The translations under genes were made by a program, and so were the position numbers. Below the pieces are notes generated by a model that worked only from the letters and a program-made list of their open reading frames with translations, did no database searches and had not been told where the DNA came from. A stretch of DNA of 63,459 nt, the filler included, from Phoronis australis (taxonomy: Eukaryota; Animalia; Phoronida): NCBI GenBank assembly GCA_002633005.1. It is 4 parts of 4 records of this genome, joined end to end, with 100 filler letters (N's around TTAATTAATTAA, not from the genome) between each part and the next. Parts side by side here need not be neighbours in the genome. Positions count along the whole stretch, not along the records: positions 30,495 to 56,564 come from NMRA01000516.1; 3 more parts are not named here. One strand, 5' to 3'. Below are positions 36,593 through 61,440 of the stretch, in pieces. Each line of letters opens with the position of its first letter. Positions within the stretch are counted from its first letter, which is position 1.

Positions 36593-38362
36593 ATGGACTT
36601 GATCAAGATTATAATGGTTTTTGTGTTGGTAGCGGAAGACATAAAGGCAGCTCCTTGCAACAGCCCGTTCAATCCAGTTGGCAGCCATTATGTGATGCAA
36701 ACACTTGATGTCGTACAGCCTTTGGAAATGAAGTCAGGGACAAGATGGTCAAAAGCGTGGGACGACAATAGTACCGTTAATTTGAACATAACGTGTGAAA
36801 ATGGATACTACACACCGGACAGACGTGGAAATAAGATTGCAACTTTCGTCTTCCGATTTGCGTGCAATTTGAACTCAAAACCACCTCAACCTTGTCGACG
36901 ATTCTCATGTTTTCCATTTAAAGACACCATCCCAACCAATTCCGAACCTATCTATCATCCTCATCTGAACAAGTATAAAAATGGTAAAGGGCAAATTTTG
37001 AGACCCGGAGATAAAGAGTTCACAGTTGATATGTATGAAATCTGGGTGGGAGACGAACAGTTTTATAAATGTAAAGAAGGATTTTCTTTCGGCGGAATGA
37101 ACGACCTTGTCTCTCAAAATTGCACATTTCCACACTTGAATAAAGGCCCACCTGATAGGGTTTCAGGATGTACTGATCGTATTACATGCCAGCTCCCTGG
37201 TGTTCGAAGTGTCATATTTCACTACGGTAACTCCCCACCTCTTTCGAATGTGGTCAAATTTTCTGAGAAACTAAAAATTTATTGTAGGACAGGTTATCAG
37301 ATTGAAGGCGGGAAAACCAGCTACACGACTACTTGTAAATACAAGCACAACAAATATAACTCAAAAGCAAAAGCGAGTTACAGGTCGAAACCGGGACTAG
37401 TGCCAGATTTGAATCAGTGCCGGCCAGTTAGTTGCGCACGTGCGTTCTCTAATGGCGTCTCTCGTCTCGTTCATACTGTGTACAGTTTCAACGAAACCGT
37501 CGTGTTTCGTTGTCACCCAGGGTTTTTGACAGAAGCTGGTGCTGAACTAGAATTGGCTACATGCACATATGGGGGCAAATACGGAGACTGGAATAAAGCC
37601 ACCATATGCACAAGAAGGGTGAAATATTGCGTGTTGTCAATGAAACCCGAAGTAAACTATGTAGCCGTAGTTAATGGAACAGAATTCAAAGCTGGCTCGG
37701 TGATTCAGGTGAAGGTGGGAGATACCGTCATGTATAAATGTCAGACAGGTTACAGTTTTGACGGCGCCTATCTTGACACCACGGGACTGACATGTAATAA
37801 GTTGGGTAAAATTAAGCAGCCATCGTTGTGTAAGAAACCTCGTGCAGATAATGCCATTGCCTTGGGTACTAAGAACAAATCTACCGGCGACATGGCAAGC
37901 ACAGTGTTGAAGCAGGCCACGGTAGGAGCCGTGGTTGGGTTTCTTTTGCTTCTGTGCTGCATAGGCACAATTATTAATCACCACAATAAGCAGTATCCGA
38001 GGCAAGTCGGGGTACAGACCGATATAACTGAAGGCGGAGATCACAATGATACGTGGAAGTCATCAAACATTGATTCACTCTTCCAAGTGAGTGACCAGTC
38101 TGGCACTAAGAGTTTTGAAACGCAACTAGGTAGTGCGAGCGAAGTTGACAAGCTGACACTCGAAAAAGTCGAGACACCAAGCAACTTGGACAATTACCAA
38201 ATAGGGTCACTCAAATTGATGGAAGAGCTTGACCACGTTAAAGATGTTCCTGGGACATCAAAAGAAACTGAGAGGAACAAATGTGTATCGAAGAGCAATG
38301 AAATGGGTGTCGATTGTGAAGAAAAGCTTGATAAATCTTACGAGAAAGGCCGGATTTGTTAG
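36593..38362 (+). CDS. Type I membrane protein with ~5 divergent Sushi/CCP (SCR) domains; single coding exon, 589 aa
   Basis: Long uninterrupted ORF with an N-terminal signal peptide. Repeated C..CxxG(Y/F)..C..C modules (ITCENGY, YKCKEGF, IYCRTGY, FRCHPGF, YKCQTGY), a TM helix ATVGAVVGFLLLLCCIGTII and a ~125-aa acidic cytoplasmic tail. Confidence 0.9.
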   Translation: MDLIKIIMVFVLVAEDIKAAPCNSPFNPVGSHYVMQTLDVVQPLEMKSGTRWSKAWDDNSTVNLNITCENGYYTPDRRGNKIATFVFRFACNLNSKPPQPCRRFSCFPFKDTIPTNSEPIYHPHLNKYKNGKGQILRPGDKEFTVDMYEIWVGDEQFYKCKEGFSFGGMNDLVSQNCTFPHLNKGPPDRVSGCTDRITCQLPGVRSVIFHYGNSPPLSNVVKFSEKLKIYCRTGYQIEGGKTSYTTTCKYKHNKYNSKAKASYRSKPGLVPDLNQCRPVSCARAFSNGVSRLVHTVYSFNETVVFRCHPGFLTEAGAELELATCTYGGKYGDWNKATICTRRVKYCVLSMKPEVNYVAVVNGTEFKAGSVIQVKVGDTVMYKCQTGYSFDGAYLDTTGLTCNKLGKIKQPSLCKKPRADNAIALGTKNKSTGDMASTVLKQATVGAVVGFLLLLCCIGTIINHHNKQYPRQVGVQTDITEGGDHNDTWKSSNIDSLFQVSDQSGTKSFETQLGSASEVDKLTLEKVETPSNLDNYQIGSLKLMEELDHVKDVPGTSKETERNKCVSKSNEMGVDCEEKLDKSYEKGRIC

Positions 38363-38404
38363 CCACGCTACTTGCGAAATGGTGTGATCGAAACGTTTTC
38401 AAGT

Positions 38405-38435
38405 TAAACACATTAAAGGTGTGATTTTATTTTGC
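38405..38435. terminator. Opposed poly(A) signals of the two convergent genes
   Basis: ATTAAA on + at 38412-38417 and AATAAA on - at 38431-38426, within the 112 bp separating the two stop codons. Confidence 0.55.
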
Positions 38436-38474
38436 TAGAACGAAGGAAAAAGGACTTTAATTTTCATGACGACT

Positions 38475-38621
38475 TTATCCAATAACGGGTTGTCCTATAG
38501 TGCGTCCTCGAACGGCAGGAAGTTTTCCACGTAATTGGTTTCCAGAGGTGTTGAGAACGAAATCGAGATATGGCGACCGCCTTGACATTGCAGCCAAACT
38601 GTCTCCTACCAAAGCTTGGCC
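38475..38621 (-). CDS. Terminal exon of LPMO-like/CHRD gene
   Basis: GQALVGDSLAAMSRRSPYLDFVLNTSGNQLRGKLPAVRGRTIGQPVIG*; GNQLRGKL resembles the CHRD end motif GE(I/L)RGQ(I/L). Confidence 0.75.
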   Translation of the reverse strand, partial: GQALVGDSLAAMSRRSPYLDFVLNTSGNQLRGKLPAVRGRTIGQPVIG

Positions 38622-41600
38622 CTGCAATGAATAAGAGAAAATTGCGTATATATAATCCTTTTCGAGAGTCCAACGTTTAAAGTATCATTCGAATTCCATG
38701 TGGTGCAAAATTGAATTTACGACAATTCTTCGGCAGTGTGAAAATGAAAATTTTAATGCATAAAATATCCTACCTCAAAAAACATTGACTTGGACAAATG
38801 ATTTGCGTACAGCGTCGTTTTTGTGGTGTTTAACGAGCTGAAGGTAGCAACGGGTCTCCCATTACTTTCGACCAGCAACGACCCAACAACAAGAGAATCT
38901 GTCAGGTCGTGAATCAAACCGCTGAAAATAGGAGATTTAAACAGGGTCATTGGATATTATATTCACCAATTTCCATGTGTTCACGTACTGATGCCGCTTG
39001 CATTCATATAAACAATTGTACAAGATATAACAGCGTTACAGTGACACAGATACAACAGCGTTACAGTTACACATATACAACAGCGTTACAGTTACACAGG
39101 TACAACAGTGTTATAGTGACACAAAAACGACATTAAGAACTAGATCACTAACTACTACCTTTCATTTCATTTCAAGACGAAATTTCTTCAAAACCGCTCT
39201 TACAGTTTCCTAAATTATCATTTCGTTTTCATTTTATGTAACTTTTGAGTTTCTTTGAAAAATCACAGCAGCCATATTTTTGATAATCCTTCATGGAAAA
39301 CTAGCATTTTAAAACTTGGAGAACGGTGCATAAAGCATAGTGAAGGTTTCATATGAAGCTGATCAGTCATTCTGAGATACGGTGTTCCGGCGAAATTAGC
39401 CAAATTTGGACTTTTTGTGGGGTTCTACATAGCTTATTAATCCCTTGAAATAAGTACAACATAATGCTTTATTCTTGATCAAGGTATTGCTTCATGAAGT
39501 CTTCTCGCAACCTGTTCTCAGAGTTTCCCTTAAACGTAAGCAATGGCATAAAAACAAAATGTTATTTCAAAAGTTACAGGTTTGCGCTTGACTTGGTACG
39601 GTAGGTACTTCTAGACAATGACTCACTTTCGATACTTTGACTACAGGTGCAAAGTTTGGTTCACAAACATCAGTTGCAGAACGAAACACTCAAGCCCATG
39701 TATCTCCAACAAAAATTTCAGCTTTCTGGGAGACTCGAACCCCTGCTGTTAGAGAACATTACGGATGCGCATACCAAGTCTTCCTCTTATTCGTAGTCAC
39801 CAAGCGCACTGGAGACGAAATGCACGCTACGTATGCCTTAAGCAATGATTTGTTGGGTAAATCATGTAAACAAGCAATTGCAGAAATGTCTTGTCCAAGT
39901 GTACGTATGAAATTTTTAGAAAACACTACACCATTACGACTTTCAAGTCCTGTATAAAGTATCTCAATGGAGTAAATTAAGTTAACAAGGAAATAATCTA
40001 ATACTAGAGATTTTAACCCAAATTTCATACAAATGCATTCGGTGGCCCCTTCAGAATTCAAATAACGCAGAGTAAAAAGTTAACGTTACTCTGCCCATCA
40101 GGCAAATAAGACTTGCGAATTGGCTAAAAAGTAAATTCTAATTGTCTTGTTACCTCACATGAAGTTTCCCGTCGCTGTGCAGAACAAACGAAACTAGTGC
40201 ATTGTACGGTGTTTGGGCAGAGAGTCCACGGTCCAATGGCTTGCCGTCCTGAGTCAGATAACTTGTTTGACCTAAGACACGAAGGTGGAGGTACTTTGAT
40301 TTTCGTCAACAATTTTTTCTCGGTCTCATTAAAGATTAAAGGTCTCCAAGTTTGACTTAAATTACACACTATTTCGTCTTTCACATACTTCGGATGAGAC
40401 AGTCATTTCACCTTTAAGAATTGAAATTGAATCTTACGTCTATTTTCATTCTTAGCTTCTAATAATAAAAAATAAAAATAATAATTGCAGGCGGTCTGAT
40501 ACATGTTGTACCAGACATGCGCAGGCCTCGCATGTGGGCCCATTGCACTGATCACCTGGAAATATTTTTATGCTTTATTAATATATCGTTTAAACCGAGC
40601 TTAGAAGCTAGAAACCTGGCTCAAGGGTTTAGCAGTGTGACCTGGTGGGACTCGAACACATGACCTCGAGTAAAGAAAGCGGGCACTTATCAACCAGGCC
40701 ACACTGCCTCCTCTCTTAGCTTCTTAGTCAACAGGCAATTTCTGCCATCTGGTGTCAAGTTATTTTGTGGCCGTAAATAGAGATTGTGGGACTTGGGACT
40801 TCCATACATTTGAAGATTCAACACGCAAGTAAATAAAAAGCCTGTTATGTTATCAGCTACTTTACTTCTGGGCAAATAAACTTGTTCTAACAATTGTTGA
40901 ACTTAGACAAAATATTACAGCGTAATGCTCAGTGCTGAAAAGAAAATATACCTGAGTACGGTGTTGCTCCTACCTGTTATATTCCAGCAGAAAGAAGAAT
41001 GGCAAAATATTTCAAACAAATGGGTTTGTGTTCCACGCAACTTACACACTTCTTGGTGGTTGTTTTTGTCACACTTCATAAACTTGGGTATTTCGCCTTT
41101 GATTCTTCTGTTATCCGATGGATTCATGTCACTAGTGGTGACGTCTAACGTCAGCAAGCCCGACTGAAGCATGAGTATTTGCTCGCTCGAGGTAAACTGT
41201 TAATAGACAACACAGTACAGTCAGCTTAATGTAACTCCTTCATTTATCTACTGTTTTGTGGGACCAATTAAGGGTATGAGTGAATATAGAAAACTGTCAA
41301 ACGTAGGAACGCTATGCCCTGAAGATGACTGATCCGGGGAACTTAAGTGATCCTATGACTTGTGGCATGTTTACCAAAGTAGCGTTGGGAATTCTTAAAA
41401 TATTCCACTTTTCCACGAGGGGATTTCAAAATCTGAGTTAATGGGATGTGATGAAAATTTTGAAAGCTGCATAAACCCGAAACGAAGAGATGCTGCAAAA
41501 TGCAACGTTTTTGAGATTGCATGTTGAATGATACTTTCTCACCTGACCTGGAATGTGTAACGACACGACTGGTTAATAACACCGAGTACGTAATTTTTTT

Positions 41601-44600
41601 ATATTACATGGGCAAATCACAAAGTAGTGCAAAGTAGAAATCCATACGCCTTACATTTTATCGTCTGCAAAATACTGAAACAACCAAACGCGCGTTAACC
41701 AAACAATGCCGGAAATTCCGAGGTGACAAGTTTATGATTGACAAATCGGGTGTCACAACTGTACGTACTACCAGTATGAAGGACATAAAAACATCTTCTT
41801 AAACGGACCCATCTTTTATATCCACGTTCATTCACTGAGATGAGCCCCAACTCAAGAGACGCGACGAGCAAGCCTCGGGATTTTGACGAAATTTCCAAGA
41901 GGTTTTGCCCATGTCATAAACCTGAGACAAGTGTAGGATTTTCTATTTTTCAAGTGAGTATACCAGGAAAATATGGTCACGTGAACGTTTAATGGTAGAT
42001 AAGTATGAAGTTAATATTCAAATACTATGAATATATACTAATAATGTATATATATTTTAATGAGTTAATTATCCTCTGAATATATTTTGCAAAAGGCACA
42101 CGCTTGCCGATGGTAACACACACATAGATCAATCGACCGACAAGGCTTCAAATCTGTGGGGTCATGCTAGCGTCTTCATTGATACGTACTGTAAATGCAT
42201 TTTTTTTCGCAATATATTAGAACCCCATGCGCGCACCCAGCCTTATATGGGGGGCTCGAATCTCTCACAAATTGGACCTTTTACTCACAAAAAGAGGGAG
42301 GACTAAAAAAAACTGGATACCACCTTCAGGTCTGTGAATTGTGCTTCTGCGCCTTTTTAGTGGACTTTTGTCTCGGACTTTTTGTTTCTCTAAGCCGGAC
42401 CTTTTTACCCACTTCGTCAAATGCAGGGGCTCGTTTGAGCCTCCCGACCCCCCCANTGTAGGATTTTCTATTTTTCAAGTGAGTATACCAGGAAAATATG
42501 GTCACGTGAACGTTTAATGGTAGATAAGTATGAAGTTAATATTCAAATACTATGAATATATACTAATAATGTATATATATATTTTAATGAGTTAATTATC
42601 CTCTGAATATAATTTGCAAAAGGCACACGCTTGCCGATGGTAACACACACATAGATCAATCGACCGACAAGGCTTCAAATCTGTGGGGTCATGCTAGCGT
42701 CTTCATTGATACGTACTGTAAAGGCATTCTTTTTCGCAATGTATTAGAACCCAATGCGCGCACCCAGCCTTATATGGGGGGCTCGAATCTCTCACAAAGT
42801 GGACCTTTTACTCACAAAAAGCGGGAGGACTAAAAAAACTGGGTACCACCTTCAGGTATGTGAATTGTGCGTCTGCGCCTTTCTAGTGGACTTTTGTCTC
42901 GGACTTTTTGTTTCTCTAAGCCGGACCTTTTTACCCACTTCGCCAAATGGAGGGGCTCGTTTGAGCCTCCCGACCCCCCNCCCCCCCCCCGGGTGCGTGC
43001 ATGAACCCATATCACTGACAATGCTGTCACATCTTCACTGACCCTAGTTGTCATCATGTGCTTTGCATTCTCGTTGTATTAGAATCTGAATGCAAAGTAT
43101 ATTATGTAAGACAAATTATGCATGGTTGCAATTTTAATTAATGCGCCTGATGGCCAGAGTCAAGCGATCGCAGTGCCTCAATGAAAAGATTTGCGCGCCA
43201 ATGACGTGGGCGCGCTTCTAAAATGGTCCCTGCACATGACATTAAGAAACTTGAGTCAAACATACAGTAAACCACATTATGTTCCCCTGTATTTGCCTAT
43301 TGTAATTAATTCTTGGTCTAACATTGCCTAGTAAACTTTGATTCATACAAAATCATTTTTAAACGTTTACCTGAAGTATGCCTTTGACGATCCATTTATT
43401 TCCAATGATGCTGGATGCCGATGACGTTAGATCAAAGAGCTCACCAGGCGGTCCATTTACAGTCACGTGACTTAAAGAACTATTAACGCCAACACCAGAC
43501 AAGTCCACCTGAAGAAATCCGATACTAGGATTTAATACAACACCCTAAGCCCCAAAATGCCGGGCGGTACTGCTCATAAAAATATTCAAAGTGGGACCAG
43601 TTGAGTAATTTTCAAAATAATCAAACGTATTATTATGCCCTGTAGTGAATATTGAACTTGTATACGAATAATTATGTCAATATCAATATGGCGTGGAAAA
43701 TATGTTGCGAACATTTAGTCTTGCCAGCACACCGTCTGTTGGCCACTTCAGACTTATAGGCTATTCATTGGGTCACGTGATGTGGCCAGTTAGAGATGGC
43801 GTGCAGACAAGATTTAAATGTTTGCAAAATATTAAACTTGTCATTCCAAATGTCCACTTTAAGCAAAATATAACAACCCCTATATGAACTATAAGCTAGT
43901 CAATATAAATGAGAGAAAGAAAGTTCTTTCTAAGGAACGTAAAAATGGAAATGCCGCCAACACTGGAAACCTTGTGGAAAGAGATAGAGAAACTGCGTGG
44001 TCTTCTCTCTTTCACTCCTCTCTCTCCCTCTCCGTCTCCCTCCCCCCCTCTCTTTCCCCATCTCTCTCTCACTAATGAGATACTTTCACTCTTTCTCTCN
44101 NNNNNNNNNNNNNNNNNNNNNNNNNNNNNNNNNNNNNNNNNNNNNNNNNNNNNNNNNNNNNNNNNNNNNNNNNNNNNNNNNNNNNNNNNNNNNNNNNNNN
44201 NNNNNNNNNNNNNNNNNNNNNNNNNNNNNNNNNNNNNNNNNNNNNNNNNNNNNNNNNNNNNNNNNNNNNNNNNNNNNNNNNNNNNNNNNNNNNNNNNNNN
44301 NNNNNNNNNNNNNNNNNNNNNNNNNNNNNNNNNNNNNNNNNNNNNNNNNNNNNNNNNNNNNNNNNNNNNNNNNNNNNNNNNNNNNNNNNNNNNNNNNNNN
44401 NNNNNNNNNNNNNNNNNNNNNNNNNNNNNNNNNNNNNNNNNNNNNNNNNNNNNNNNNNNNNNNNNNNNNNNNNNNNNNNNNNNNNNNNNNNNNNNNNNNN
44501 NNNNNNNNNNNNNNNNNNNNNNNNNNNNNNNNNNNNNNNNNNNNNNNNNNNNNNNNNNNNNNNNNNNNNNNNNNNNNNNNNNNNNNNNNNNNNNNNNNNN

Positions 44601-47600
44601 NNNNNNNNNNNNNNNNNNNNNNNNNNNNNNNNNNNNNNNNNNNNNNNNNNNNNNNNNNNNNNNNNNNNNNNNNNNNNNNNNNNNNNNNNNNNNNNNNNNN
44701 NNNNNNNNNNNNNNNNNNNNNNNNNNNNNNNNNNNNNNNNNNNNNNNNNNNNNNNNNNNNNNNNNNNNNNNNNNNNNNNNNNNNNNNNNNNNNNNNNNNN
44801 NNNNNNNNNNNNNNNNNNNNNNNNNNNNNNNNNNNNNNNNNNNNNNNNNNNNNNNNNNNNNNNNNNNNNNNNNNNNNNNNNNNNNNNNNNNNNNNNNNNN
44901 NNNNNNNNNNNNNNNNNNNNNNNNNNNNNNNNNNNNNNNNNNNNNNNNNNNNNNNNNNNNNNNNNNNNNNNNNNNNNNNNNNNNNNNNNNNNNNNNNNNN
45001 NNNNNNNNNNNNNNNNNNNNNNNNNNNNNNNNNNNNNNNNNNACTCAAAGAATTATTTAATTGGACTCTACTCAGAGAATAACTTACTTGGACGCCACTC
45101 AAAGACGGCTTGCTCCTTTGTTCTTGCCTGTTAACCGATAGAGTGAGGACGCTGTTTGACGGCACCGCTCCTATGATTTTGTTGACGGCGTTAATGAAGA
45201 TGACTCGATTCTGAATGTGGTAGTCTGTTTCATCAAGTATACCTGGCGCAGATAAATAGATTTGCGCATCAAACTACTGGCACAACTTAGCTTACCTGCG
45301 TTTTATCACACTATACTAGTTGACAATATGCACACCTACGTGCATTCATAGCAATGGCTGCAAAATAAATTTTAGGATAACCTATGAACTATCCACGTTA
45401 GACATGTTTTGTGTTTCGTTTCGATAAAAAATATTTGTCGAATGATGACATTGGGAATTGCTCGTCCGATGAGCCCCTAACCCTATCCTCCCCTGCCAGT
45501 GGTAGAGTGAACCAGTCCGAGGCAATTTCGCAAATGCCAGGTTTTTGTCTATAGCCCAAGTTCCTTGAACATTGGGCTTATGACGTAGATAACGTAGCCT
45601 TTTTGCATCAACTTACTAGCGCCATTGCTGGTATAGATATCAACTGAAGCCGTCTTATCGATATCGCGCCCACTGGTAATGAGACCAGAAACAGTAGTAA
45701 CTTGGCCTCGGAATGTGGTGAAAGTTACAATTCCATGAAAAAGAGACCTGTCGCTTTCTCCAAAGATGGCCTGCAAAAGATCATGGTTTATAACTCGTGG
45801 GTGCTGAGATAATGCCATCACTCATTTTTTCATCAACTCTTCATGTACGTTAACGACATGGTCAAGCAGAGTTTCAGAACAAAGCGGTTCTAATGCGCTT
45901 GTCTTCTCAGGCAATGTAGCAGTCCAACATGGGGGTGTCACACGGTCCCACCTCATTATTTCTAAGTGTTCTACCAATGTAACTGTGAACTCCTCACGTT
46001 TTAGTAGTTTTAGTAATATTTGAACAGATTATTCAACTGACCTGTAACTAAGGGTGTATTTTGCTGAAGTGAAATTAATTTTTCCGAAATAATTGCGTGA
46101 AGCGTAAGAAAAGTGATCCGTTTCATGACATGCGACCAACAGTTGCCAAATGGTCAGCTCAGACAATTGTGATAAGTTATTTTTAAAAAATTGAATTATA
46201 ATAAGCAGTTGCATGTACACAGACAAGCGTTTATTTAACAACTGTGAACTGAAATGCTAAGGAAAAATTCTCAACTAACACTGAAGTCACTTTTTGTGAA
46301 CAAAGTCCCAGTGAATTTGACTTAACAGGATTCGCCACAGTTTGCCAAAAAACAGCCATTGTTTTATGGTACTGACTGGTTTATAAAAAAATTGATCACT
46401 GTTTTTATTTCAACTGACTTATTTTAAGGGAGTTAGACACAATTTGTTAAAATGTCGTAAAACAGTTATTGTTTTAAGACATTGAACAATTTCTAATACT
46501 TTTAAATGTGATTTTATATTCGAAATATCAGGTTATTTAATTTGAAAAATGTTTTTTTGGATTCGTTTTTTATTATTTTGCGTGTAATAATAACGCGCGT
46601 CGCCAGAATTTCACATTGGCATTATACTAAACGATAGGAAAATAAGTGTTACTTAATTCAAACGGCAATTTTGAAATTATTAAAGAAAAAACTTCTCGTC
46701 TTATAGTGTTTGTATCAACTAAACTTACTGCACCCTCCGACAACATGGCCAACTAGCGAAGTGTAGCAAGGTAATCGTGGTCTTGAAATTGGCGCGCTTT
46801 TTAAGAAGGGGCATTCTTAAAATACAATACTGTTTGAGTAAGGAGCTCAAAAAGATACAGGATGAGCATCAAACTGAAACACCAGAAACATTTAACACTA
46901 AAATTAAACAAGTTTTGAAAGGGATTTCAATCATCGGTTTCATTAGACGTGCTTATTCAGTAGCCCACCTCAAATTTTACATTATTGTCAGAGGTGCGTT
47001 TGTTCAGACGGCCGTATCCATAGACCACGCTGTAATGGAAATGCTAATTCAGTGCAGATTTGTAGTAGGCAATGACCGAAATACAAAATGTGAAAATTAA
47101 AAAAGATCAAAGATAAAATAAAGCAGTGCAGGAATCCCCTTAAATGTTACTTTTGCGTCCAATTTCTGTTATTTTGGCGCGCCACATCAAATTTCACAGT
47201 GACATCATAACAAACAACAGGCAAAAAGCCTAATGTCTTCATTACAGAAATAAAGTAGCTTGATTGATTGATTCAAACAATTGCTCCTTGCATACCATAA
47301 ACGCCTCAATGCTAAAACTTTATTAGAGTAGAGAGACAAAGCGGCATTTACAATAATTGGAATTCCAGCTGTTGCCTCTCTGCTATGTCAAAACATACAT
47401 GCGGCATTATAACTTGTCATGAGAGCAAGTCAACATCGATTCTAATAAGGAAAATACAAAGAAAATTTAAATGGCATTCCCTTCTGCTTACCAAAACTCC
47501 ACACTAGAGGACAGTATTTCGAGCAAATTCAGTTTCGAAGTATCGCTATCACAGTAGGAATTCATCACCGTCCCTTTGAAGATCATCTCAAGCATTTGAG

Positions 47601-50600
47601 TGGTAAAACTCACTTCAGGAAATTTTAAACAATAAAGGGTCTTAATACAGTTACAGGTGACCGATCAATTACAGCTGGGTTTTGAAAGCGATACCGTCAC
47701 GACACGCAATGATAGTCTTAGAGGCAATAAACTTGTAATTCATGCCATTTACCCGGCGTTATAACATCGGTCTTACGTCATTTCTTGCACAAATTAGAAA
47801 TAGTTTCTGGCTTGTCATTATTACTTCACATCAGTCCTGTTTGTCACGGCTGGTTACTTCACATCAGCCCTGCTAGTCACTGCAAGTTGCTTCACATCAG
47901 TCCAACTTGTCACGTCACGGCAGGTTGCTTCACATCAGTCCAGCTTGTCACTACAGGTCACTTCACATCAGCCCTGCTTGTCACGGCAGGTCACTTCACA
48001 TCAGCCCTGCTTGTCACGGCAGGTTACTCTATTGTTCAGTCACCCAAGCAGTACTTACAGCTGTCAAGCCATTCGTTATGAAAAGGTGTTTTCTATAATT
48101 GTACTACGCTCTCTGGTTATAACCAATTTCAAAACAAAAGATGTGAACGTTACTTTGGGAAACTAAACGAGTAAATAGGACAGTAAATTCGATTCATGTT
48201 GTTGACAGCCGACCATGGTATACAGTGCCTTCAATAAGCAAATTTCTTAATTTCACTGACTATCATTGTGTGAACCAAAAAGCACCTGTTAAACATTTTC
48301 ATTTAATGGATTCGTATTTACTTTTCGTGTTGCTTCTTACTTACATAGCCAATGTCCTCCCTTGTTACTTACATACACAGTGTCTTCTCTTGTAGCACAT
48401 GGACCCACGGGATGTGCTGGTGTCACGTCACTATTTCTGAGGTTGACCACTTGAGGTGGAAGCCATTGTTTGGCGACAAAGTTAGCGCCTAGATCTCTGT
48501 ACACACCATTCGGGTGCTTAAAAGGACAATGTTACAATTGGGGGACTTTTTGTATTTTTAGCATAATTTACTTCAAGCGTCTATAAACCCACTTTCCATC
48601 ACGAAAACCGGCTTTAGATTTAGATTACTTTCAGTCTTAAAATTGGTCGTAAATTGAAGTCAAATAAGAGGTGACATCACAGTGTTCGCATCAAGTGACT
48701 TGCTCACCGTGCTTCACTCCCGGACTCTAGTAGGCTTGTTAGACTCACAGTGTTCGCTCATTGAGCTTTACTCGCGGAGTGTAGGCTTGTTACGGTAATG
48801 CTCCATGTTATTTTGGTCAAAAATAATTTCGAAATGTTCATTTTTCATTTTTCAAAACCTGCTTACTTTTACAGTACATAATGAAAAATTTACAAAATGT
48901 CTTGTTTCACGATATCTCCGCATTACCAACCATGGTAGTAATAGAATAAAAAAATTTTAATTTTCAGTTTTGTGGAGAAATTTGACAAAATGGAATTTTA
49001 CTTGTTAGATATAGCGTGTCCCGAATAAATGAAAAATTACCGTAGTGCCGGTTTTATGAAAATCTACGAAAAAGATTTAAAATGCCGTTCAGAGAAGGTA
49101 AAACCAAAATTGTCTTCAAAAGCCTAATATTCCCTATCAAAAATAGTATACAACATAGGTAACATAGATAGGACTAAGAGGAGAAGACGAGGGGGTTTGA
49201 GGGGTATTTTGTACTCTTGATAGGCCTTATTTGTACATTAGCAGCAGGAGTGTCGCTCATAAGAAGGCACTCGAGCGTGTACAAATATTAGGGATCAACA
49301 AAATCATGACGTCATACGTGATGCAAATTTATGCTAAGAGTCTCTTTTGACCTTCAAATGAGGGGAACTTTGCGATCTACAGAGCCGGAGTACGGCTGTC
49401 TTCGCGGCGGGCCTTTGGTGTGTACATAGTACATATATGTCATGACTCTGCCATTGACGCCCTGGAAACCATTTGTTTAAATCGATCAATGAAATGACTT
49501 GGTGTGGTGAATGGAGTACATTGACTTTGAGTCCGGCTTTGAACATTGAATACCGGTACGGTCGCGGCAGCCCAACAAGCATCAAGATATATTTAAAGAC
49601 TTGCAAACCAGCTTACGCTTTGACTGGTGTAAGGCCACGTGTTGTAGAACGAAGAAATGCTGGTTTCAGATTGACAGCTACCAAGGCCTCTTCCAACGCC
49701 AAACCTTGACGGACGAATTTTGATATTTGCGCAGGAGTAATAAGTGCTGCAGTTGTTGCGCGACGGCGATTGTTGGACGCACGGCTCTTCTGTAAAGACA
49801 AACGATTAACTTACGCAATGCCACTCCGGACGAAGGATAGAACTTGAACCCATCTTACACGGGAGATAGAACCATCACATTGACCCACTCTTTGCAAAAC
49901 ACTTCTAGGCCACCCGTAGTGACAAGAAGCTAGCACACTCACGACTGGAAGGAATTAAGTTAAATTGGTTAAAAACCAGCCTTCCAATCAGTAGCACTTG
50001 GACCTCGCCAAATCGCAAGACTCCGCGAGATTGCGCGAGATATTGCATTGAATGAGAACACCTGACTTTGGCTAGATTTTAGCTAGGTCCTAGCGTAGGT
50101 CCTAGCGTTACTGAACGCTAGCCTGCAGTTGTATGTCGAATAAACTAACATTTGATTTTAGATCACGTTTCGTTATTATGTTTGTCTCGAAGTCTCGATT
50201 TGCTCCCTGGTCGAGTGAGAAGGCGTTTCTGGGCTTAGAAATAACTCATAGTTCTTTATTATTGCTCGATACTATGACCAGCACAACAAACTTCACGGAG
50301 TGTCATTCAGCTTGTTACGAAGAGTCTGCTCTCGAGCACTAACAAACTGTGGCGAGATCTTCCCAATGCGAGGGTTGATTTCTAATCTAACCAACGAACA
50401 AGCTGAGACCAGGGGTTTTGTAACCTATAGTGGTGTTAATCAAAAGTTAGCTTTTGATCGAAGAATTTGGATAACGCCTTATAGGTGATCTCGTCCTAGA
50501 CTCTATCTTTTGAATCCAAATAAACCCTTCAAAGTGGTCATAAATGTTTGAATTCGCTTACCAACAATTTTGGTGTGATATTTTAAGCATTCTATCTTCA

Positions 50601-53532
50601 CTTTGTGTACTTTTGATCAAGAAATAAACGCAGAAAGTAAAAAATGTGATTGACTGCATCATCGACCAACTGAGTATTTTTGGGCCTAAACACGTCTTTT
50701 GACGACGACGGAAATTGTGGAAGTCCATAGACAAACTGTTCTATTAAGCAAAATAACTTCAACAGACACATGAACTTAAATTATTCAGTTGAATCATTAG
50801 ATTGACACAACTGATGTACAGGCAGACTAGATATACATGTATTTTAGTTAGGCGATCAGCTACTCACGGGCGTCGTTGTATTTATCTGTCATAACGCTTA
50901 TCAATTGTAAATAGCAGTCATTGCATTCGATGTCTGGAATAATAACGGTGATGTGAGATGTACTGTCTTTACATCGGCCGATCGGATATCCGTTTATCTG
51001 AAGAGAACAAGTACACTTTAGTGATGCGTGTACTGTATACCCAGTAGTTACATGGGTCAACTTTGAATTTCAAAGTCTTAAAAATGAAGAAGCACAGTTT
51101 TCAAATTGGATGTATTGTTCACAGGAATAAGAAGAGTTAAGTAAGCCTAGTGTTAATAGACTGTAGGGCAAGCCCAGACCAAGCAGATTTTCTTACGTCA
51201 AGTGGTGGGATGATTGGATATCCCAAAAACCTCTACCCAAGATTGAGCGCACATCAGTCCCATCTATCAGCAAAAAGTTCACTGCTTGATTGGAAGCATC
51301 TGCGGTAGATTCACCGAACACATTACGTAGATCTAACTCAATGTTCACAAAGATTACAATGTTTATGTAGAAGACGCTATATTAAGGAACGTGTTGACTT
51401 ACTTTACAAGTGGTAAAGAAGTTTGCGAAGCTAATCTTAGCCGCATTATTGTGTGGGATATGATCAAGGAGAGTGCAGAATGTTGAATCGTCGCCTCTCT
51501 TCAGTAGTCGAATGGAGGTTGGCGCATCTGAAAGTCAATAATTTGCTTTAAGTGCACCTTCCTTATTCTTAGAATAACGTTGTTTTCTCAAAACTCTCTA
51601 TTACTATTTTAAAGCACCCACCGGGAACATATCAGACATTTCCAAAACCCCAAACTGTACCTCAGACATATTTCATATCGAGCAAGTACCGCGCCGCTTG
51701 GCAAACTTCAACCATAACCTCAAAGAGACTTGGTAAGGAAACGGTTGAAAACGACGGGTTCAACCTACCAGGTCTCAAAAGTAATGCATATGACGCCATT
51801 CTCAATCCTTTGTCTGCCAATTGATGCACAATTAACCCTTGTTTAAGCCTATTACAGCATTGGTATACTCATTGGCTGCTGCTCGTCGACTTCTTCTGAT
51901 TTTGAGAGTATCATGGTTTTCTAATAATGAAGTTCATACACAGACATAAAACAACTCTGAGCTGAGGCAATACTTGACGAGTACGGGCGTGATTAGAATG
52001 TTTGTGGACAGCAGAACCCACTTCTGCTTCTACGTCACCTCTTACTCGTGTTGTCTTAGGAAGTACTTGAATACTACTACCGCTGTCACGTTGTTCACTG
52101 TTGTCGCAGCTTCCGCTGCCCACTGAGTGTTGCGCCTCCCGACGATCACATTATGTATATGATCACATTACGCTATTCTAGAGGTGGTCTGTAATAGCTG
52201 CCAACCCTTTAAAATTATTACCATTAGTTGAATCACTAAGACCTCTCTTGTGATTGTCTATACTTGAGTTATCTTGGTAAATATTGTCAAAGACTTTGAT
52301 TTTAGACCAAAGTCGAACAAATGTGTATCATTATAGTCATCATGTGTTCCATCGGTCGGGTATCAGGTCATTTTATTAACACAATTAATAAGTTCCAACA
52401 GTTCTAATGTGCCATTCTGGCTTGTCAATGCATAAGAAATCATATTAAATGGCAGGAAAACATCAAGATTCAACTTTCTATACATGGTCTAGGCAAAAGG
52501 ACCTTAGTATAGAAAACTATCCCACTGTTTGAGTCAACACATAGTGTCAGTACATACATGCATACATACATGCATACATACATGCATACATACATGCATG
52601 CATACATGCATGCATACATGCATGCATACATATACAAACTCGATTTACAGTGAGTAGTGAACAGGTGTGTGTTATGTATTTTAAATTTCCTTACCACGTT
52701 ATTGGAAGATAACAATCCATTACCTGTATGAAAAAAGGTCTCCTCAAACCTAAGAGTCATAGGACCTGGTTTCACCTCCGTGAACATGTTCTCAGTTCCG
52801 GTGTAACCTACGTCTCCACATGGGCCCTACAAACGAAGAAGAGCCTAGGTCTAAAAATTTATCCAATAGCATGATTTCAGAACTCTACGGTAAACATTTT
52901 GTTACTGATTTGCATTATGAATTCAACCAGCTATCGCGGGCTCAAACGTCTGCAGAACTTGTTTGATTTTGGAATCCACATGTTCTTTACGTCAATAGTG
53001 TGCGCGAAAATCACACACGGTCACTCAACATTATCTTCACCAATTCTCCAGCATTTACGCACTTTCTTCGTTTGCATTCGCATGAAATAAAATTACTATT
53101 GAATAAGCTCCAAAATTCCCCATTCTTGCAAATCCTAACCGTCTCTTTCCTTATATGATCCAAAGGCGTCGCACTGATTTGACGGTAACCCGTAGCCTTT
53201 GGCTACACGCTTTTGTCAAACAGTCATTACAAAAGAAATTATTTCACGCTGTAATGAAATTTAATAATTTTACAGAAAGAAATGTTGTATGTAAATCTAT
53301 ATGGTACATGTTCCCAGATTGATGCAAAATGCGGTTAGCTGTTCACAGCACTCTGCAACACTGCATGCACGTTGAAAGCTTTTATGTTGATTCGTCTCCT
53401 TAGGAAAAACCAACTCACCGTTTTAAATCCAGAGTTAGGATGCTGCGGACTTGGACATACGAATCTTGCATGGCCGCTGACTTGAACAAGGGCGTGCACA
53501 GTCAGAAGCACGACCTTAACGAGAGCCGTCAT
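38475..53532 (-). CDS. Multi-exon gene: secreted LPMO-like (N-terminal His-brace) protein with C-terminal CHRD-like repeats
   Basis: GT-AG exons 53532-53419, 52826-52724, 51527-51403, 50997-50868, [an exon not found], 48516-48373, 45770-45617, 45242-45088, [N-gap], 43508-43371, 41196-41046, 40271-40154, 38921-38774, 38621-38475 (TAA). All identified junctions are phase-consistent except 50868 to 48516. Confidence 0.8.
38774..38921 (-). CDS. Exon of LPMO-like/CHRD gene
   Basis: Phase 2-0, (S)GLIHDLTDSLVVGSLLVESNGRPVATFSSLNTTKTTLYANHLSKSMFFE. Confidence 0.75.
39020..39123. repeat. 25-bp minisatellite, 4 copies (intronic)
   Basis: tacaacagcgttacagt(g/t)acaca repeated. Confidence 0.85.
40154..40271 (-). 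CDS. Exon of LPMO-like/CHRD gene
   Basis: Phase 1-2, (C)QTSYLTQDGKPLDRGLSAQTPYNALVSFVLHSDGKLHV(S); bridges the phases of both neighbouring exons. Confidence 0.75.
40590..40710 (-). mobile_element. tRNA-derived SINE head
   Basis: Minus strand GGCAGTGTGGCCTGGTTGATAAG (A box) ... GTGTTCGAGTCCCACC (B box), continuing into non-tRNA sequence. Confidence 0.7.
41046..41196 (-). CDS. Exon of LPMO-like/CHRD gene
   Basis: Phase 0-1, FTSSEQILMLQSGLLTLDVTTSDMNPSDNRRIKGEIPKFMKCDKNNHQEV; resembles the CHRD C-terminal half (LxxGxLYVNVHT..P.GEIRGQI). Confidence 0.8.
42226..43003 (+). mobile_element. CATGCGCGCACCC-type MITE (shown twice because of an assembly overlap)
   Basis: atgcgcgcacccagccttatatggggggctcg ... 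cccc gggtgcgtgcatg; related to 19754-19982. Confidence 0.55.
43371..43508 (-). CDS. Exon of LPMO-like/CHRD gene
   Basis: 138 nt, phase 0-0, VDLSGVGVNSSLSHVTVNGPPGELFDLTSSASSIIGNKWIVKGILQ. Confidence 0.8.
45088..45242 (-). CDS. Exon of LPMO-like/CHRD gene
   Basis: Phase 1-0, (S)ILDETDYHIQNRVIFINAVNKIIGAVPSNSVLTLSVNRQEQRSKPSLSGVQ; gtaagt donor. Confidence 0.78.
45617..45770 (-). CDS. Exon of LPMO-like/CHRD gene
   Basis: Phase 0-1, AIFGESDRSLFHGIVTFTTFRGQVTTVSGLITSGRDIDKTASVDIYTSNGA; gtaagt donor. Confidence 0.78.
47812..48028. repeat. 33-bp minisatellite, ~6.5 copies (intronic)
   Basis: cttcacatcag recurs at 47824, 47857, 47891, 47928, 47961 and 47994. Confidence 0.9.
48373..48516 (-). CDS. 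Exon of LPMO-like/CHRD gene (end of N-terminal region)
   Basis: 144 nt, phase 0-0, HPNGVYRDLGANFVAKQWLPPQVVNLRNSDVTPAHPVGPCATREDTVY. Confidence 0.78.
49980..50122 (+). mobile_element. ~150-bp MITE, same family as 25445-25592
   Basis: ggctagattttagctaggtcctagcgtaggtcctagcgttactgaacg terminus. Confidence 0.7.
50868..50997 (-). CDS. Exon 4 of LPMO-like gene
   Basis: Phase 0-1, INGYPIGRCKDSTSHITVIIPDIECNDCYLQLISVMTDKYNDA; the PxxxCxxCxLQ motif is typical of LPMO-fold proteins. Confidence 0.88.
51403..51527 (-). CDS. Exon 3 of LPMO-like gene
   Basis: Phase 1-0, (D)APTSIRLLKRGDDSTFCTLLDHIPHNNAAKISFANFFTTCK. Confidence 0.88.
52550..52633. repeat. (TACA/TGCA)n tetranucleotide microsatellite
   Basis: tacatacatgcatacatacatgca... 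directly visible. Confidence 0.95.
52724..52826 (-). CDS. Exon 2 of LPMO-like gene (second His of the putative brace)
   Basis: Phase 0-1, GPCGDVGYTGTENMFTEVKPGPMTLRFEETFFHT. Confidence 0.88.
53419..53532 (-). CDS. Exon 1 of LPMO-like gene: signal peptide + mature N-terminal His
   Basis: MTALVKVVLLTVHALVQVSG^HARFVCPSPQHPNSGFKT; gtgagt donor. Confidence 0.88.
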
Positions 53533-56500
53533 TGTTTTTGTCTGGAAGGCTTCGACTGACAACCTTGAAGACGCTGCGTCATGCTGTAGTGGGCTGATCT
53601 TGTGGACACTTGTGTAATCAAAGTTTTGTTGACCTGAGATTTCCCACACGAGATAATGAAGCATTTGAAAGGGATTGATTGACAACGGAGCGATTTTCGT
53701 CTGATGATGGGTGTTGCTATTTCATATGAATCTCTTTCGGACCACCGTTGTTTCATATTTCTTTTGGCTGGACCATAACGGTATGAATATTGCTATTTGT
53801 CAATTCCTGAAACTCATTCCACCACCCATACGTCTATCGGCAAATAATAGGCTTTCGTTAATATGTTAAGGATGTTTTTCACTCGAATGTTTCATGAATA
53901 TGCACACGCGCTTATGATCCACTTGTACACTGTATAAGCGCAGTCGTATATCCGTCGGCAGAATCGACTCATCTTTTGGAGTTAAAATAATTCTCCCATG
54001 ATACTGACCGCTCATATCTTCATTTTATCCCCGGTATGTTCTTGATTGCAAGCCACTAGTAGCACTTCTAGTATTTTTCTTTCTTCAGTATTCTGAGGTC
54101 TCATTTATTTTTGAATAACGTAAAATATATATAACCAGCACTGGATTGCTTAATTATCCGCTGAATAAGTTTGATTGTTGCATGACGTCGGGTGCGTTGT
54201 TCAACAATAACAACGTGGCGCGTGATAATGCGACGTCATTGTTGCTATGAAGCGTATAACTTTTATGCAGCTGGACCCTGAATGGAAACCTACATCAAGG
54301 CACAGTGTGTGATCAGTGGCATGTATGAATCGCATGGAATTGGTTTTTAGTGGCACCTCGAATGTATGAGCTAGCTCGTGTTGGGGGATCCTGTTTTGGT
54401 TTCTGCCGGACCCATTTCAGAGTGCAGATTTGTCTCTCATGGGTCATTTGATATTTAGTGCGGTACTACTGTCCGTTTTAATCTAGCTCTGTGCCGCTGG
54501 GTCTTTGTTTTCTTACTCTTTGTGAACGCAGTGCCTGTAACTCGCATTTATTCCTAAGTTTATGCAATCATTTTGAATTACAAAACATGAAACCTAGGGA
54601 ACCGGTGGGACAGTTAAATTTGGACATCGTCAATGTATACTTGACATTTGAAGTAGTAGCCCGTTGTAGGGGGCCACGACCCAAAATATGGGTACACATC
54701 ACATGTCTAACCACAAAAAGCAAGTGAAAGAGTTACTTTTTCAGGCAAGCAATGCGTTGCGCGCTTTGGTTGTTTTTGTCCGTTTTAGGTGGCACGAGGC
54801 GCTTTTTTCTTTGACGATTTCGCTGGGGTATGTTTCAGAAAATCGTGCTGTAAGTCATTTTTTCTGTGACTGTTAATTTAGGTACACAGCAACTGAAAAA
54901 AAATGTATAAATCACGTCATTTTAAATCTCCATATCGCTCCGTTATATCCACTTCGACTTGTATGGATTTTGGCTCCTTTAAACACTCCACCATGCTTTA
55001 TTTTTGAAGTTCGTTAACGACAACGCGTACCAGGATTTTAAGGTTCGTGCCCTCCCCTCGAGTTTTAGTTGGCAATTTTGACATGAAGATGATTGTGATA
55101 TTTTGCGTTCCATGACGAGAATTCCATCAAGGCAGGTTTTGCCTAATTAAGCTTTTCATTCATTTTTGTACCGTGTATGGTCGTAGGCAAAATATGATAC
55201 CATCAAGATTTTAGTCTAGATGTTTCCAAACTGGGTTTTTGGCCATAACATTTATAGGAATCTGATTATGAGAGCGCAAGAGAAAACGAACATATTTGCG
55301 ACGTTTCGTTTACTCAATGTAAATGAGCCTAAATGTCAGAAAATATTTGTTTTTTCTTTCTCGCTTATGATGATTTTCAAGGGTTTCCGTTATTCAGTTT
55401 CGGCAAGGTCGTCGCTTTCTCGCAAAGCTACCGATTGGATAATCAACTACGCACTTATTTGCTTTTCATTTTAAGGTTGATCATCGTCAATACACCTCCA
55501 AAATCGCGCATCGTTTTTGCGCAAACTACATTGAGATTTAAGTCTCCCGAAAAAAGTTGACGATCGGATAGTGTTTAAAAGTATAATTCTAAATTTCTCC
55601 AGTTAGTGCACCAATGAAGTAAACGAAAGTAGTTCTGCTTGTCGCGTCAGCTGTTGGTATCATTATCTCGATTTATGACCCACAACGCATGACTGGACAA
55701 AGCCTTTTCAAATTAGTGTAGATAAGCCGGTGGAGAGTGAGACCCCTGAGGTCCCAATCGAGTCCTCACCACAATTCCACGTAAGGTCTCCAGGAGTCAC
55801 ACCCAGAGTGCAGGCCCACGGCAGACGTCCATTTCTATATTAAGGTGGACTCTAAGTTCTCCTATGGTCAGATGTTGGTACCTCGTTCATCTATGCTAAG
55901 TTTTCTGGATTGCCGATCCAATAGGCCTACAGAGAATCTGTTGACGATGCCACAGAAGCATACATCATAGATCTGCCATCTACTGCGAACTTCAATGACG
56001 AAATTTGGATTGAGTTGGAAATTCGAATTCCATCATGGAGTACCCGCAAAGCGGGAACAACCGTCGTTGAATGAGTATGATCGAGACTTTTCCAAATATC
56101 AATTTTATGTTAACAATAAGGTGCACAAGCCCAGTAGAGAACCTCAAAGAAGAACGCAAGCGCCCTGAGACAGTTGAGAAACTTCAAATGAATTTTCTGG
56201 ACTGAAGGAGTTAACTTTGGCAAAATCGCCACGCTCTTACCTTGGAAGAAACCGAGAAAAGATGGACGTTTGTGTCGTGTTTGACTAAAAAATCACCCTC
56301 TCGCCGGTTCTCCGAAGGCCGGCACAGGTTAGTCATCTCGTCCCATTTTACTTTTTTATAATTAGTCAAAAAGTTGGGGCAGATCCTCAGTCAAATAGAT
56401 AGTCCTTTCTGCAGGTCTTCCTCACCTGTTCATGTTCACGGAAAACTTTTTCGACATGAGAGACAGTTCTGCATATCTATCGAAACGCCAGCCTTGGAAA

Positions 56501-60079: not shown

Positions 60080-61440
60080 GATTACTGTGTAAGATTGATG
60101 TTCAAGATGTGACTTGTGAATATTTCTATTGTTTCTGATGAGATGGCGAATTGTGGTAGTCTATTCCAGAGTAGAATGGTAGATGAAAGAGTTTGCGTAG
60201 TATGCAGTGCGGATGTATAATCTCTCAAAGGTATGGGAGTGGGAGTTTCGTGATCTGGAGGACTGTAGGAGTAGAAGGTATGAGTGAGGAATAGCAACCA
60301 GGTTATGTATGGTCTTGTACAGAAGGAATAGTTTGTTCTGAGCTCGTCTTTCCTGGAGGGTGGGCCAATTGAGAGTTTTGACCATGGATGAAATGAAGGA
60401 GTACCTTGAGTGGTCATTTAAAACAAACCTGCCTGCTCTACGAAGTATTTTTTCTATTTTTTCAATGTTTGTACGAGTGGATGGATCCCAGACAGAGGAG
60501 GAGTATTCTAGTTTTGGTCTAACAAGTGAAGTGTAGGCAAGGGCTTTTGTTTTTTGAGGAGCATATTTGAGATTTCGTTTAATGAAGCAAAGTGTTTTGT
60601 TTGCCTTTGAGGTGATGTGCCTATATCACTATAATATGAGTGTTCCATGATAAGTTATTGGTGAGAGTGACCCCGAAGTATGGGGCTTCATTAATGCATT
60701 TGAGTGAAGCGTTGTGTGACGCTGTAATTGTATATTATGGAGGAACGTTTTCTGTGGATACAAAGAGTATTGCATTTGGAGACATTAAAGTTCATTTTCC
60801 AGGAGTTTTCCCAAGAGGCGAGGGATCTATTTAGTCTTGTTGAAGAATTTGGCAATCGTGGGAGGAACTAATGGGTCTGTGTTAGAGTACGATCTCATAT
60901 CCCAGTGAGTGCATGTGTAGGAGTAGTTCAGAGAATTAAGTGTTACATAATACATCCCCAACATGAGGAATTGTAGTAAACATGTTTGTTCAGTATATCC
61001 TGTTATGATTCATGTATGTCACTATATAAGTGTATGATCGCATGGATTGTAACAGACTCAGTAGTATCAGCAGAAGAGTATGTAATAAAACTATTAATAA
61101 TCCTCCTTCAGACTAGTATTATCCTTGGACCGCGTTCTCGCACTGTGTCGCGCATTCAACGTTCCTAACCGAACAGAATGCCTTTCACTGCTAGCACATC
61201 AACAGTCTGTACTGCTTCATCAGCAAAAAGCCGGACAGTAGAAAGAATGCTGTCAGGGAGGTCGTTTATGTAGAGTATGAAGAGTGCAAGGCCAAGGACA
61301 GAGCCCTGGGGCACTCCTGATTGGACGTGGCTGGGGAGGAATTTGAGAACTCGCCATCGACGACGACTCTCTGTGTTCTATCCCGACTATGGGATAGAAA
61401 TGACTGGATCCAATTGTGGGTGAGACGCCTTATTAGGCTT
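60080..61440 (-). mobile_element. 5'-truncated CR1-group non-LTR retrotransposon (RT C-terminal half), degenerate, with a ~320-bp insertion at ~60882-61200
   Basis: Minus strand [35 protein letters not shown] ... KANKTLCFIKRNLKYAPQKTKALAYTSLVRPKLEYSSSVWDP ... LNWPTLQERRAQNKLFLLYK. Confidence 0.9.

Follow-up and report, generated by a model that had tools for sequence, protein, structure and literature searches.

A multidomain gene of the phoronid Phoronis australis predicted to encode a secreted, LPMO-like histidine-brace protein outside family AA15

AA15, defined in PMC5823890, is listed as the animal histidine-brace family in Table 1 of PMC10952591. Animal sequences resembling lytic polysaccharide monooxygenases (LPMOs) but falling outside AA15 are not new as such: distant matches to the fungal family LPMO14 were reported in bivalves, corals and anemones (PMC5320794), and LPMO16 in Metazoa, together with early-branching sequences bearing DOMON or EGF domains (PMC6950343, whose Table S1 may include members of the group described here). 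Other relatives carry the brace without a known glycan activity. X325/Bim1 proteins have a role in copper uptake and no detected polysaccharide activity (PMC7924993), X325 using an Asp as fourth copper ligand (PMC10952591), while MtAA16A, with a normal brace and a second-sphere Gln, is reported to cleave no glycan and to make H2O2 (PMC10088020). Catalytic LPMOs of families AA9-11 and 13-17 share an N/Q/E-x-F/Y motif (PMC5320794, PMC11137697) whose second-sphere Glu or Gln is described as crucial for H2O2 handling and the peroxygenase reaction (Hall et al., PMC11137697), the key positions of ScAA10C being Arg212, Asp214, Glu217 and Phe219 (PMC11137697). Here we describe a gene on the minus strand of a 63,459-nucleotide stretch of Phoronis australis DNA (assembly GCA_002633005.1; the window), in which an N-terminal LPMO-like domain with an intact predicted brace is joined to a tail of CHRD-like repeats. 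Its domain resembles bacterial proteins of the SCE4755 family (NCBIfam NF043005, a hypothetical equivalog). No paper mentioning SCE4755 was found in a literature search that most subscription papers lay outside, and the family is therefore uncharacterised as far as the searched literature goes. The same literature held no description of this architecture, whether under LPMO plus CHRD or as a novel annelid or metazoan brace family; a co-mention of LPMO and CHRD proved to be an unrelated use of the two terms.

Scanned exon by exon, the gene matched NF043005 through exon 4 (E 6.8e-7, 29.4 bits) and exon 2 (E 0.016, 15.3 bits), with no NCBIfam match for exons 1 and 3 alone. A search with a motif pattern returned 122 bacterial loci (80 with full flanks), and a profile was built from 75 domains; all seven source proteins tested, including that of Sorangium cellulosum So ce56, exceeded the NF043005 cut-off. 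Residues 21-183 of the spliced window protein matched this profile from end to end (positions 1-148 of 148) at 56.4 bits, compared with at most 9.4 bits for 1000 shuffles, and the similarity is therefore beyond chance. Because the CxxC strand, with its Gln and Met, was part of the search pattern, conservation of these residues among the bacterial domains is not independent. The pattern imposed none of His1, Lys17, His51 and Tyr129, which are invariant in 62 of 62 bacterial domains, nor Glu47, present in 59; these correspond to His21, Lys37, His71, Tyr174 and Glu67 of the window protein. Single-exon alignments onto bacterial scaffolds were mostly misaligned and were used for no search.

The resemblance to SCE4755 proteins extends over the full domain: the first His, the Lys, Glu and second His, the CxxC, Met and Asp, the axial Tyr and the closing Cys all align, a signal peptide is likewise predicted before His1, and Glu and Gln are likewise missing from the six commonest residues at the position before the axial Tyr. 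The window protein differs in its extra Cys pairs, a His95/His98 motif, Ser148 in place of the family's Gln, and the CHRD-like tail. Eight real homologues scored 20.1-52.8 bits on NF043005 (27.6-52.8 for the animal proteins) against a cut-off of 75, so the group appears from these scores to be a eukaryotic sister group or subfamily rather than a cut-off member. The original prediction had called the protein SCE4755-type rather than AA15 from motifs, all of which we located at their minus-strand positions; the preference holds (60.3 bits on the SCE4755 profile versus 11.3 on an AA15 profile), but family membership by the NF043005 cut-off does not, judged by the homologues. Pfam gave no match for exons 1-4 and sub-threshold matches only for exons 5-14, among them CBM_14 (E 0.053), which was rejected. 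Neither PF20238 (X325/Bim1) nor LPMO_10 matched the exons or the 20 proteins scanned from the homologue search, whereas two AA15 sequences used as positive controls reached 54 and 70 bits with LPMO_10.

RNA-seq places this domain in a much longer transcript (Table 1). Four runs (X1 to X4) were mapped to positions 45050-54500, and three of them (X3 left out) to the region downstream. The reads define seven GT-AG joints in 45050-54500, at all of which the first mate lies on the plus strand, as expected if a stranded library captured minus-strand RNA. From 5' to 3' these joints, connecting exons 1-8, were crossed by 14, 11, 9, 15, 32, 25 and 48 reads in X1 and by 15, 15, 9, 10, 11, 11 and 7 in X2 (49789/50868, 48516/49617 and 45242/45617 being the fourth, fifth and seventh). 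X3, of similar depth and from the same study, showed only two joint-crossing reads, both at the same joint; the joint 53419/52826 was also present in an X4 contig. Four further joints, from 43371 to 38620, were supported by 17-36 reads in X1 and 8-20 in X2, with 32 and 20 at 41196/43371. The gene is thus expressed in two of three comparable samples (X1 and X2), at strongly different levels between samples. Because 27 reads continue past 45088 into sequence absent from the window, at least one exon probably lies in the assembly gap at 44100-45042. The spliced translation is free of internal stops over both exons 1-8 (366 aa) and exons 10-14 (245 aa), giving a gene of at least 14 exons and a product of more than 611 aa.

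The original prediction had proposed a four-exon, intron-containing animal gene. Splicing is visible in the RNA reads, all three of its joints are GT-AG and RNA-supported, and the frame is open with Gly20-His21 and His71 in place. The exons are therefore real, but the gene runs on through at least ten more, to 38475, is multidomain, and needs exon 5 to complete the LPMO-like domain. A stop directly after exon 4 was ruled out, as reads splice at 50868, a donor. An in-frame ATG at 53664 was also considered as the start; 53532 is preferred, as translation from there yields a signal peptide that stops just before His, the arrangement of the homologues. The N-terminus is hydrophobic by its hydropathy profile, with Val at -3 and Gly at -1 of the putative cleavage site, and each of the 14 eukaryotic sequences with His1 has a small residue ahead of it. 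On this basis we infer cleavage at Gly20/His21. A transmembrane or glycosylphosphatidylinositol (GPI)-type tail was not found, the highest 19-residue hydropathy being 1.38 in exons 10-14. Coding variants seen in RNA reads include Met52Thr, Thr261Ser and Gly297Val.

Homologues were found in other eukaryotes. A word-based search with exon 4 produced no candidate; an exon 4 profile run without a word index retrieved nine proteins among 1.84 billion representatives, two of them short fragments, and P0001 from this search was dropped as a low-complexity repeat artefact. A profile of six full-length homologues added 12 (8 new of 12 matches, then 4), and one of the 19 homologues used is a partial mollusc sequence. 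Named sources are the annelids Owenia (CAH1789858.1) and Dimorphilus (CAD5114452.1), the molluscs Liolophura (two proteins, XP_064595205.1 and XP_064600936.1), Gigantopelta (XP_041352778.1), Lottia (XP_009054970.1), Plakobranchus, Lymnaea and Elysia, and the diatom Fragilariopsis (OEU05739.1, reached via a cluster member). Identity to the window domain is 35-56%, with Owenia at 52% over the domain, and the linker and repeats are collinear in the animal proteins. Searched against plasmids with tblastn, exon 4 gave one match, judged to be chance; the Owenia protein gave none against phages.

The eukaryotic sequences separate into proteins with and without an intact brace. Wherever they reach, Cys26, Glu67, Cys90, His98 and Trp209 are kept, His98 being present in all 20 sequences and His95 in 19. 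Met150 occurs in 12 of the 20, and all 12 also keep Lys37, Glu67, His71, Asp152 and Tyr174; His1 is present in all ten of these whose N-terminus is intact. The other eight, seven named molluscs and one sequence grouping with them, have no Met, and only three retain both His. Overall, His1 is replaced in 3 of 17 sequences and His71 in 4 of 20, and the losses sit in one mollusc clade and one chiton paralogue, which the sequences suggest are about two independent events. Judged by its residues, the window protein is of the intact-brace type. Five mollusc sequences (P0004, P0012, P0013, P0014 and P0016) carry the substitutions, with Glu, Lys or Asn for His1 and Arg, Glu, Met or Ile for the second His. 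The brace-less mollusc proteins, in which the Cys pattern and His98 are retained, likely represent a non-copper offshoot.

The fold was assessed on models of two homologues, Sorangium and Owenia, to which the window protein was placed by alignment. For the Sorangium domain, modelled with AlphaFold (pLDDT 96), structural matches were LPMOs throughout, and the best were tied at Z 13.6: AA15 (5MSZ; root-mean-square deviation (rmsd) 2.0, 124 residues aligned) and X325 (6IBI; rmsd 2.9, 120 aligned). Residues 24-181 of the Owenia model matched 5MSZ at Z 10.0 (rmsd 2.7, 133 aligned), and the AA16 structure 7ZE9 was also matched, at Z 10.3 with the Sorangium model and 7.6 with that of Owenia. The nearest neighbours of the Owenia domain in the ESM Atlas were a mostly giant-virus cluster (TM 0.74), a green-algal cluster (0.77) and SCE4755 clusters (0.65). 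A Foldseek search with the whole 784-residue Owenia model was swamped by multi-immunoglobulin proteins and returned the phytocyanin domain only; the wide VIA search resolved three domains. The structural comparison proposed earlier therefore gives a predicted LPMO-type immunoglobulin-like beta-sandwich in both homologues, and superposition of their whole domains, starting at residue 1, on LPMOs would place His21 and His71 of the window protein side by side around a copper.

For comparison with AA15, a second motif search gave 95 matches, of which 23 were complete distinct domains; the two tested matched TdAA15A (E 1e-57 and 2e-39). A maximum-likelihood tree of 79 domains (38 bacterial, 20 eukaryotic and 21 AA15, two near-duplicates omitted) set AA15 on one side of a 100/100 branch and placed the window protein in a 14-row animal group (97/93) within the 20-row eukaryotic group (100/99), a clade of annelids, molluscs and diatoms. 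The protein is thus not nested within AA15 in the free trees. In approximately unbiased (AU) tests on a 33-row subset, forcing the window protein with AA15 cost 19 log-likelihood units (p-AU 0.06, not formally rejected), and the test did not reject a union of AA15 with the entire eukaryotic group (p 0.53), so that the two may be sister lineages. The proposal that the protein is non-AA15 is accordingly borne out by its position in the trees but softened by these two p values and by AA15 being its nearest solved relative, with the active TdAA15A matched at E 5.8e-7 in sequence and also the top structural match. An initial AA15 pattern scan of viral contigs produced a chance match; a separate viral contig (L124:457-1041, plus strand) carries an AA15-like LPMO gene (LPMO_10, 54 bits) on a long branch inside AA15.

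With AA15 (TdAA15A, 5MSZ) the protein shares the predicted fold and brace, the axial Tyr and the CxxCxLQ strand. Both also have a loop closed by Cys ahead of the final strand, and both occur in invertebrates. In the Owenia model this loop lies with its strands at the place of the AA15 beta-tongue, without the AA15 loop motif. The window domain has ten Cys, as many as AA15, of which only the C-terminal ones align to the AA15 profile. It differs in belonging to a separate clade, in length (about 163 aa versus 185-222 in the AA15 set), in a CHRD-like tail where AA15 has carbohydrate-binding modules, and in having Ile or Phe at the Ala89 position and Ser at that of Glu182. X325/Bim1 (LaX325, 6IBI; PF20238) is alike in its small LPMO fold, tied best for the bacterial domain, in a brace without known glycan activity, and in that bacterial relatives match PF20238; X325 proteins are fungal and GPI-anchored, whereas the window protein has neither an anchor nor a PF20238 match. 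No counterpart of the X325 fourth-ligand Asp was identified, Asp152 and Met150 being candidates by alignment only. AA16 (MtAA16A, 7ZE9), the later name of LPMO14, has the LPMO fold and a brace with axial Tyr as well, but keeps the second-sphere Gln and gave the lower structural score (Z 7.6 with the Owenia model).

The remainder of the product can be followed across the animal homologues. The linker in exon 6 scored 16.1 bits on a homologue profile, compared with at most 6.6 for 600 shuffles, and is followed by three repeats that are collinear with annelid and mollusc proteins in the full alignment. On homologue profiles built without the window sequence, repeat 2 reached 33.8 bits (600 shuffles, at most 6.6) and repeat 3 reached 10.5 (600 shuffles, at most 4.0); repeat 1, at 1.1 bits, was not above its shuffles and is collinear in the full alignment only. 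Repeat 2 is homologous to the Owenia repeat that exceeds the Pfam CHRD (PF07452) cut-off of 24.1 (31.9 bits, E 2.7e-7). One of the 20 proteins scanned was above this cut-off and six more matched below it, and the window's tail exons, scanned individually, gave no CHRD match. The model of Owenia residues 357-477 matched yeast CCS domain II and Cu/Zn superoxide dismutases (SODs) at Z 10.4 (rmsd 2.7, 111 aligned); this evidence for a SOD/CCS fold comes from repeat 2 of Owenia, repeats 1 and 3 having been barely probed structurally. A His-x-His motif provides copper ligands in the SOD-fold domain of Cu/Zn superoxide dismutase; none occurs in the 428 known residues of the window tail, the gap exon being unseen. 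Many lophotrochozoan homologues, among them the Owenia protein and the long mollusc ones, also possess a phytocyanin-fold domain (Z 12.1 in Owenia) and a hydrophobic tail of membrane or GPI type, both absent from the window protein. In the Owenia homologue (P0005) the phytocyanin-fold domain spans residues 629-724 and, by eye, lacks the usual Cys/His type-1 copper ligands.

The residues around the predicted metal site bear most directly on function. Through the profile, His71 aligns with His91 of TdAA15A as well as with the invariant His51 of the 62 bacterial domains, and Tyr174 with the axial Tyr184 of TdAA15A. Residue 69 stands opposite Ala89, two places before the second His, and is Phe in the window; residue 172 stands opposite the Glu two places before the Tyr. 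Position 172 is Ser in the window, Glu in none and Gln in one of the 20 eukaryotic sequences, and Glu in all 23 AA15 domains. The second-sphere Gln or Glu of the N/Q/E-x-F/Y motif is therefore missing from the window protein, with Ser172 in its place. Alignment via AA15 and strand patterns suggests that Met150 and Asp152 occupy the positions of Arg212 and Asp214 in ScAA10C. Residue 69 is also variable: at window position 52736 the assembly has a Phe codon, whereas 5 of 19 and 12 of 18 RNA reads have one for Ile, Ile or Val being the norm of the homologue family at this place.

The reading we favour, tentatively and as something short of probable, is that of a secreted, soluble copper-binding protein that holds or hands on copper rather than cutting polysaccharide. 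Removal of the signal peptide at Gly20/His21 would free the amino group of His21, and the brace of His21 and His71 would bind one copper above Tyr174. Met150 and Ile or Phe69 would crowd the site where active LPMOs have Arg or His and Ala, so that peroxide would lack guidance towards a glycan; the three CHRD-like repeats would serve as metal-free spacer or docking domains. The protein would then work in the manner of fungal X325/Bim1 without being a member of that family. Copper holding is preferred over glycan cleavage because the site lacks a Glu or Gln for peroxide and has Met and Ile or Phe beside the metal. The original prediction of an uncharacterised copper enzyme or copper-binding family fares unevenly: the brace residues and axial Tyr are kept, but the missing second-sphere residue and the lost mollusc histidines weaken the enzyme half of it.

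Several points weigh against copper holding. The protein retains the axial Tyr of active LPMOs, and a shared fold by itself shows no function. Aligned directly with ScAA10C, the Met falls one residue away from Arg212, and the part of the missing Glu or Gln could be played by the invariant Glu67, Lys37 or Asp152. For a Bim1-like role, a soluble, anchorless protein is a poorer candidate than its GPI- or membrane-tailed homologues. Finally, the presence of both His in only three of the eight mollusc-group homologues, with the rest of the protein conserved, means that the family can function there without the brace.

Some of the same observations suit an active LPMO or peroxygenase, acting on an unidentified glycan through a rearranged second sphere (Glu67, Lys37, Met150 and Asp152) with the CHRD-like repeats binding substrate; we regard this as doubtful but a close rival to copper hand-off. 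The brace, axial Tyr and LPMO fold are all retained, the nearest solved relative is itself an active enzyme, and the Owenia model has its Cys-closed loop at the beta-tongue place. C-terminal binding modules are common in modular LPMOs (PMC5823890), and sample-dependent expression would be expected of a tissue-specific enzyme. This activity is harder to reconcile with the lack of a Glu/Gln-x-Tyr motif, the bulky residue at the Ala89 place, repeated brace loss in molluscs, and the failure of any Pfam carbohydrate-binding domain to exceed its cut-off in the exons or homologues.

An extracellular copper oxidase, making H2O2 or oxidising small reductants and, for example, feeding peroxidases in matrix cross-linking or defence, is unlikely in our view. 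Two fungal AA16 proteins provide a precedent, MtAA16A making H2O2 without cutting glycan (PMC10088020), and the structural match to 7ZE9 and the kept axial Tyr agree with it; yet MtAA16A retains the second-sphere Gln that the window protein is missing, and there is no partner enzyme nearby, the window's longest open reading frames (ORFs) having yielded only a Sushi-domain gene. We give similarly little weight to a protein of the extracellular matrix or of recognition, in which the LPMO-like domain would bind a ligand and copper binding would be dispensable or vestigial. The replacement of either His while Cys26, Glu67, Cys90, His98 and Trp209 stay, and CHRD-like repeats devoid of His-x-His, are what such a protein would predict; against this, the full brace and its neighbour set persist in the window, annelid and protist proteins over a very long evolutionary distance, and the losses are confined to one mollusc clade and one chiton paralogue.

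A more speculative elaboration of copper hand-off, and one we think rather improbable, is an animal extracellular copper chaperone built like CCS, in which a Met-tuned brace domain would carry copper and metal-free SOD-fold repeats would provide docking to secreted copper enzymes, extracellular SOD for example. If true, animals would here employ the LPMO fold for a non-enzymatic purpose, within a lineage they share with diatoms, giant viruses and myxobacteria. A fast-evolving member of AA15 is very improbable, since the top solved match, the ten Cys and a p-AU just short of rejection are outweighed by the profile scores, a position outside the AA15 branch and inside two well-supported clades, and the absence of LPMO_10 matches where AA15 controls score clearly.

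Table 1. Exons of the brace gene and the assembly gap within it, in order of transcription (positions in the window).
Feature	Position	Strand	Content
Exon 1, coding part	53419..53532	minus	Predicted 20-aa signal peptide, His21 (codon 53470-53472), Cys26, Lys37
Exon 2	52724..52826	minus	Cys41, Glu67, Phe69, second brace His71 (codon 52728-52730)
Exon 3	51403..51527	minus	Cys90, eukaryote-specific His95/His98 motif, Cys113
Exon 4	50868..50997	minus	Cys139/Cys142, Gln145, Ser148, Met150, Asp152
Exon 5	49617..49789	minus	Cys161/Cys171 loop, Ser172, axial-position Tyr174 (codon 49740-49742), Cys177
Exon 5, rest			End of LPMO-like domain, then start of Cys-containing linker
Exon 6	48373..48516	minus	Conserved linker segment
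Exon 7	45617..45770	minus	Start of CHRD-like repeat 1, weakly supported
Exon 8	45088..45242	minus	Remainder of repeat 1
Assembly gap (N)	44100..45042	minus	Probable site of exon 9, inferred
Exon 10	43371..43544	minus	CHRD-like repeat 2; putative acceptor at 43544, placed by AG and reading frame
Exon 11	41046..41196	minus	End of repeat 2
Exon 12	40154..40271	minus	Start of CHRD-like repeat 3
Exon 13	38774..38921	minus	Repeat 3
Exon 14, coding part	38475..38621	minus	End of repeat 3 and stop at 38475-38477

Other features of the window were noted in passing. Tail to tail with the brace gene lies a single 590-aa ORF (36590-38362, plus strand) with Sushi/CCP repeats (Pfam E 5e-13) and a likely transmembrane segment, transcribed in both X1 and X2, with bidirectional reads at about 38400-38900. 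Deep divergent piles of RNA reads on both strands at 50025-50125, 48968-49005 and 54154-54280, with fold-back joints near 50050-50097, are transcribed repeat elements in introns and upstream of the gene, and a short tandem repeat occupies 52545-52641 in intron 2. Two minus-strand ORFs of 138 and 154 aa (234-650 and 60161-60625) look by eye like retroelement remnants and had no Pfam match at E 0.01.

What is new here is a predicted soluble form with an intact brace and RNA-proven splicing, the finding that Lys, Glu and Met are conserved jointly with the brace, the decay of the brace in molluscs, and the CCS/SOD fold of the repeats as seen in the Owenia model. The gene belongs to a second, old brace lineage, present in annelids and molluscs and related to diatom and bacterial proteins, with seemingly no member assayed; being soluble and brace-intact, the window protein is well suited to expression. 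All three domain types of the Owenia homologue have copper-protein folds (LPMO, SOD/CCS and phytocyanin), which points to extracellular copper handling, a process poorly known in marine invertebrates. With the brace and axial Tyr kept, the second-sphere Glu or Gln not, and a Met conserved beside the site, the family offers a natural test of brace catalysis.

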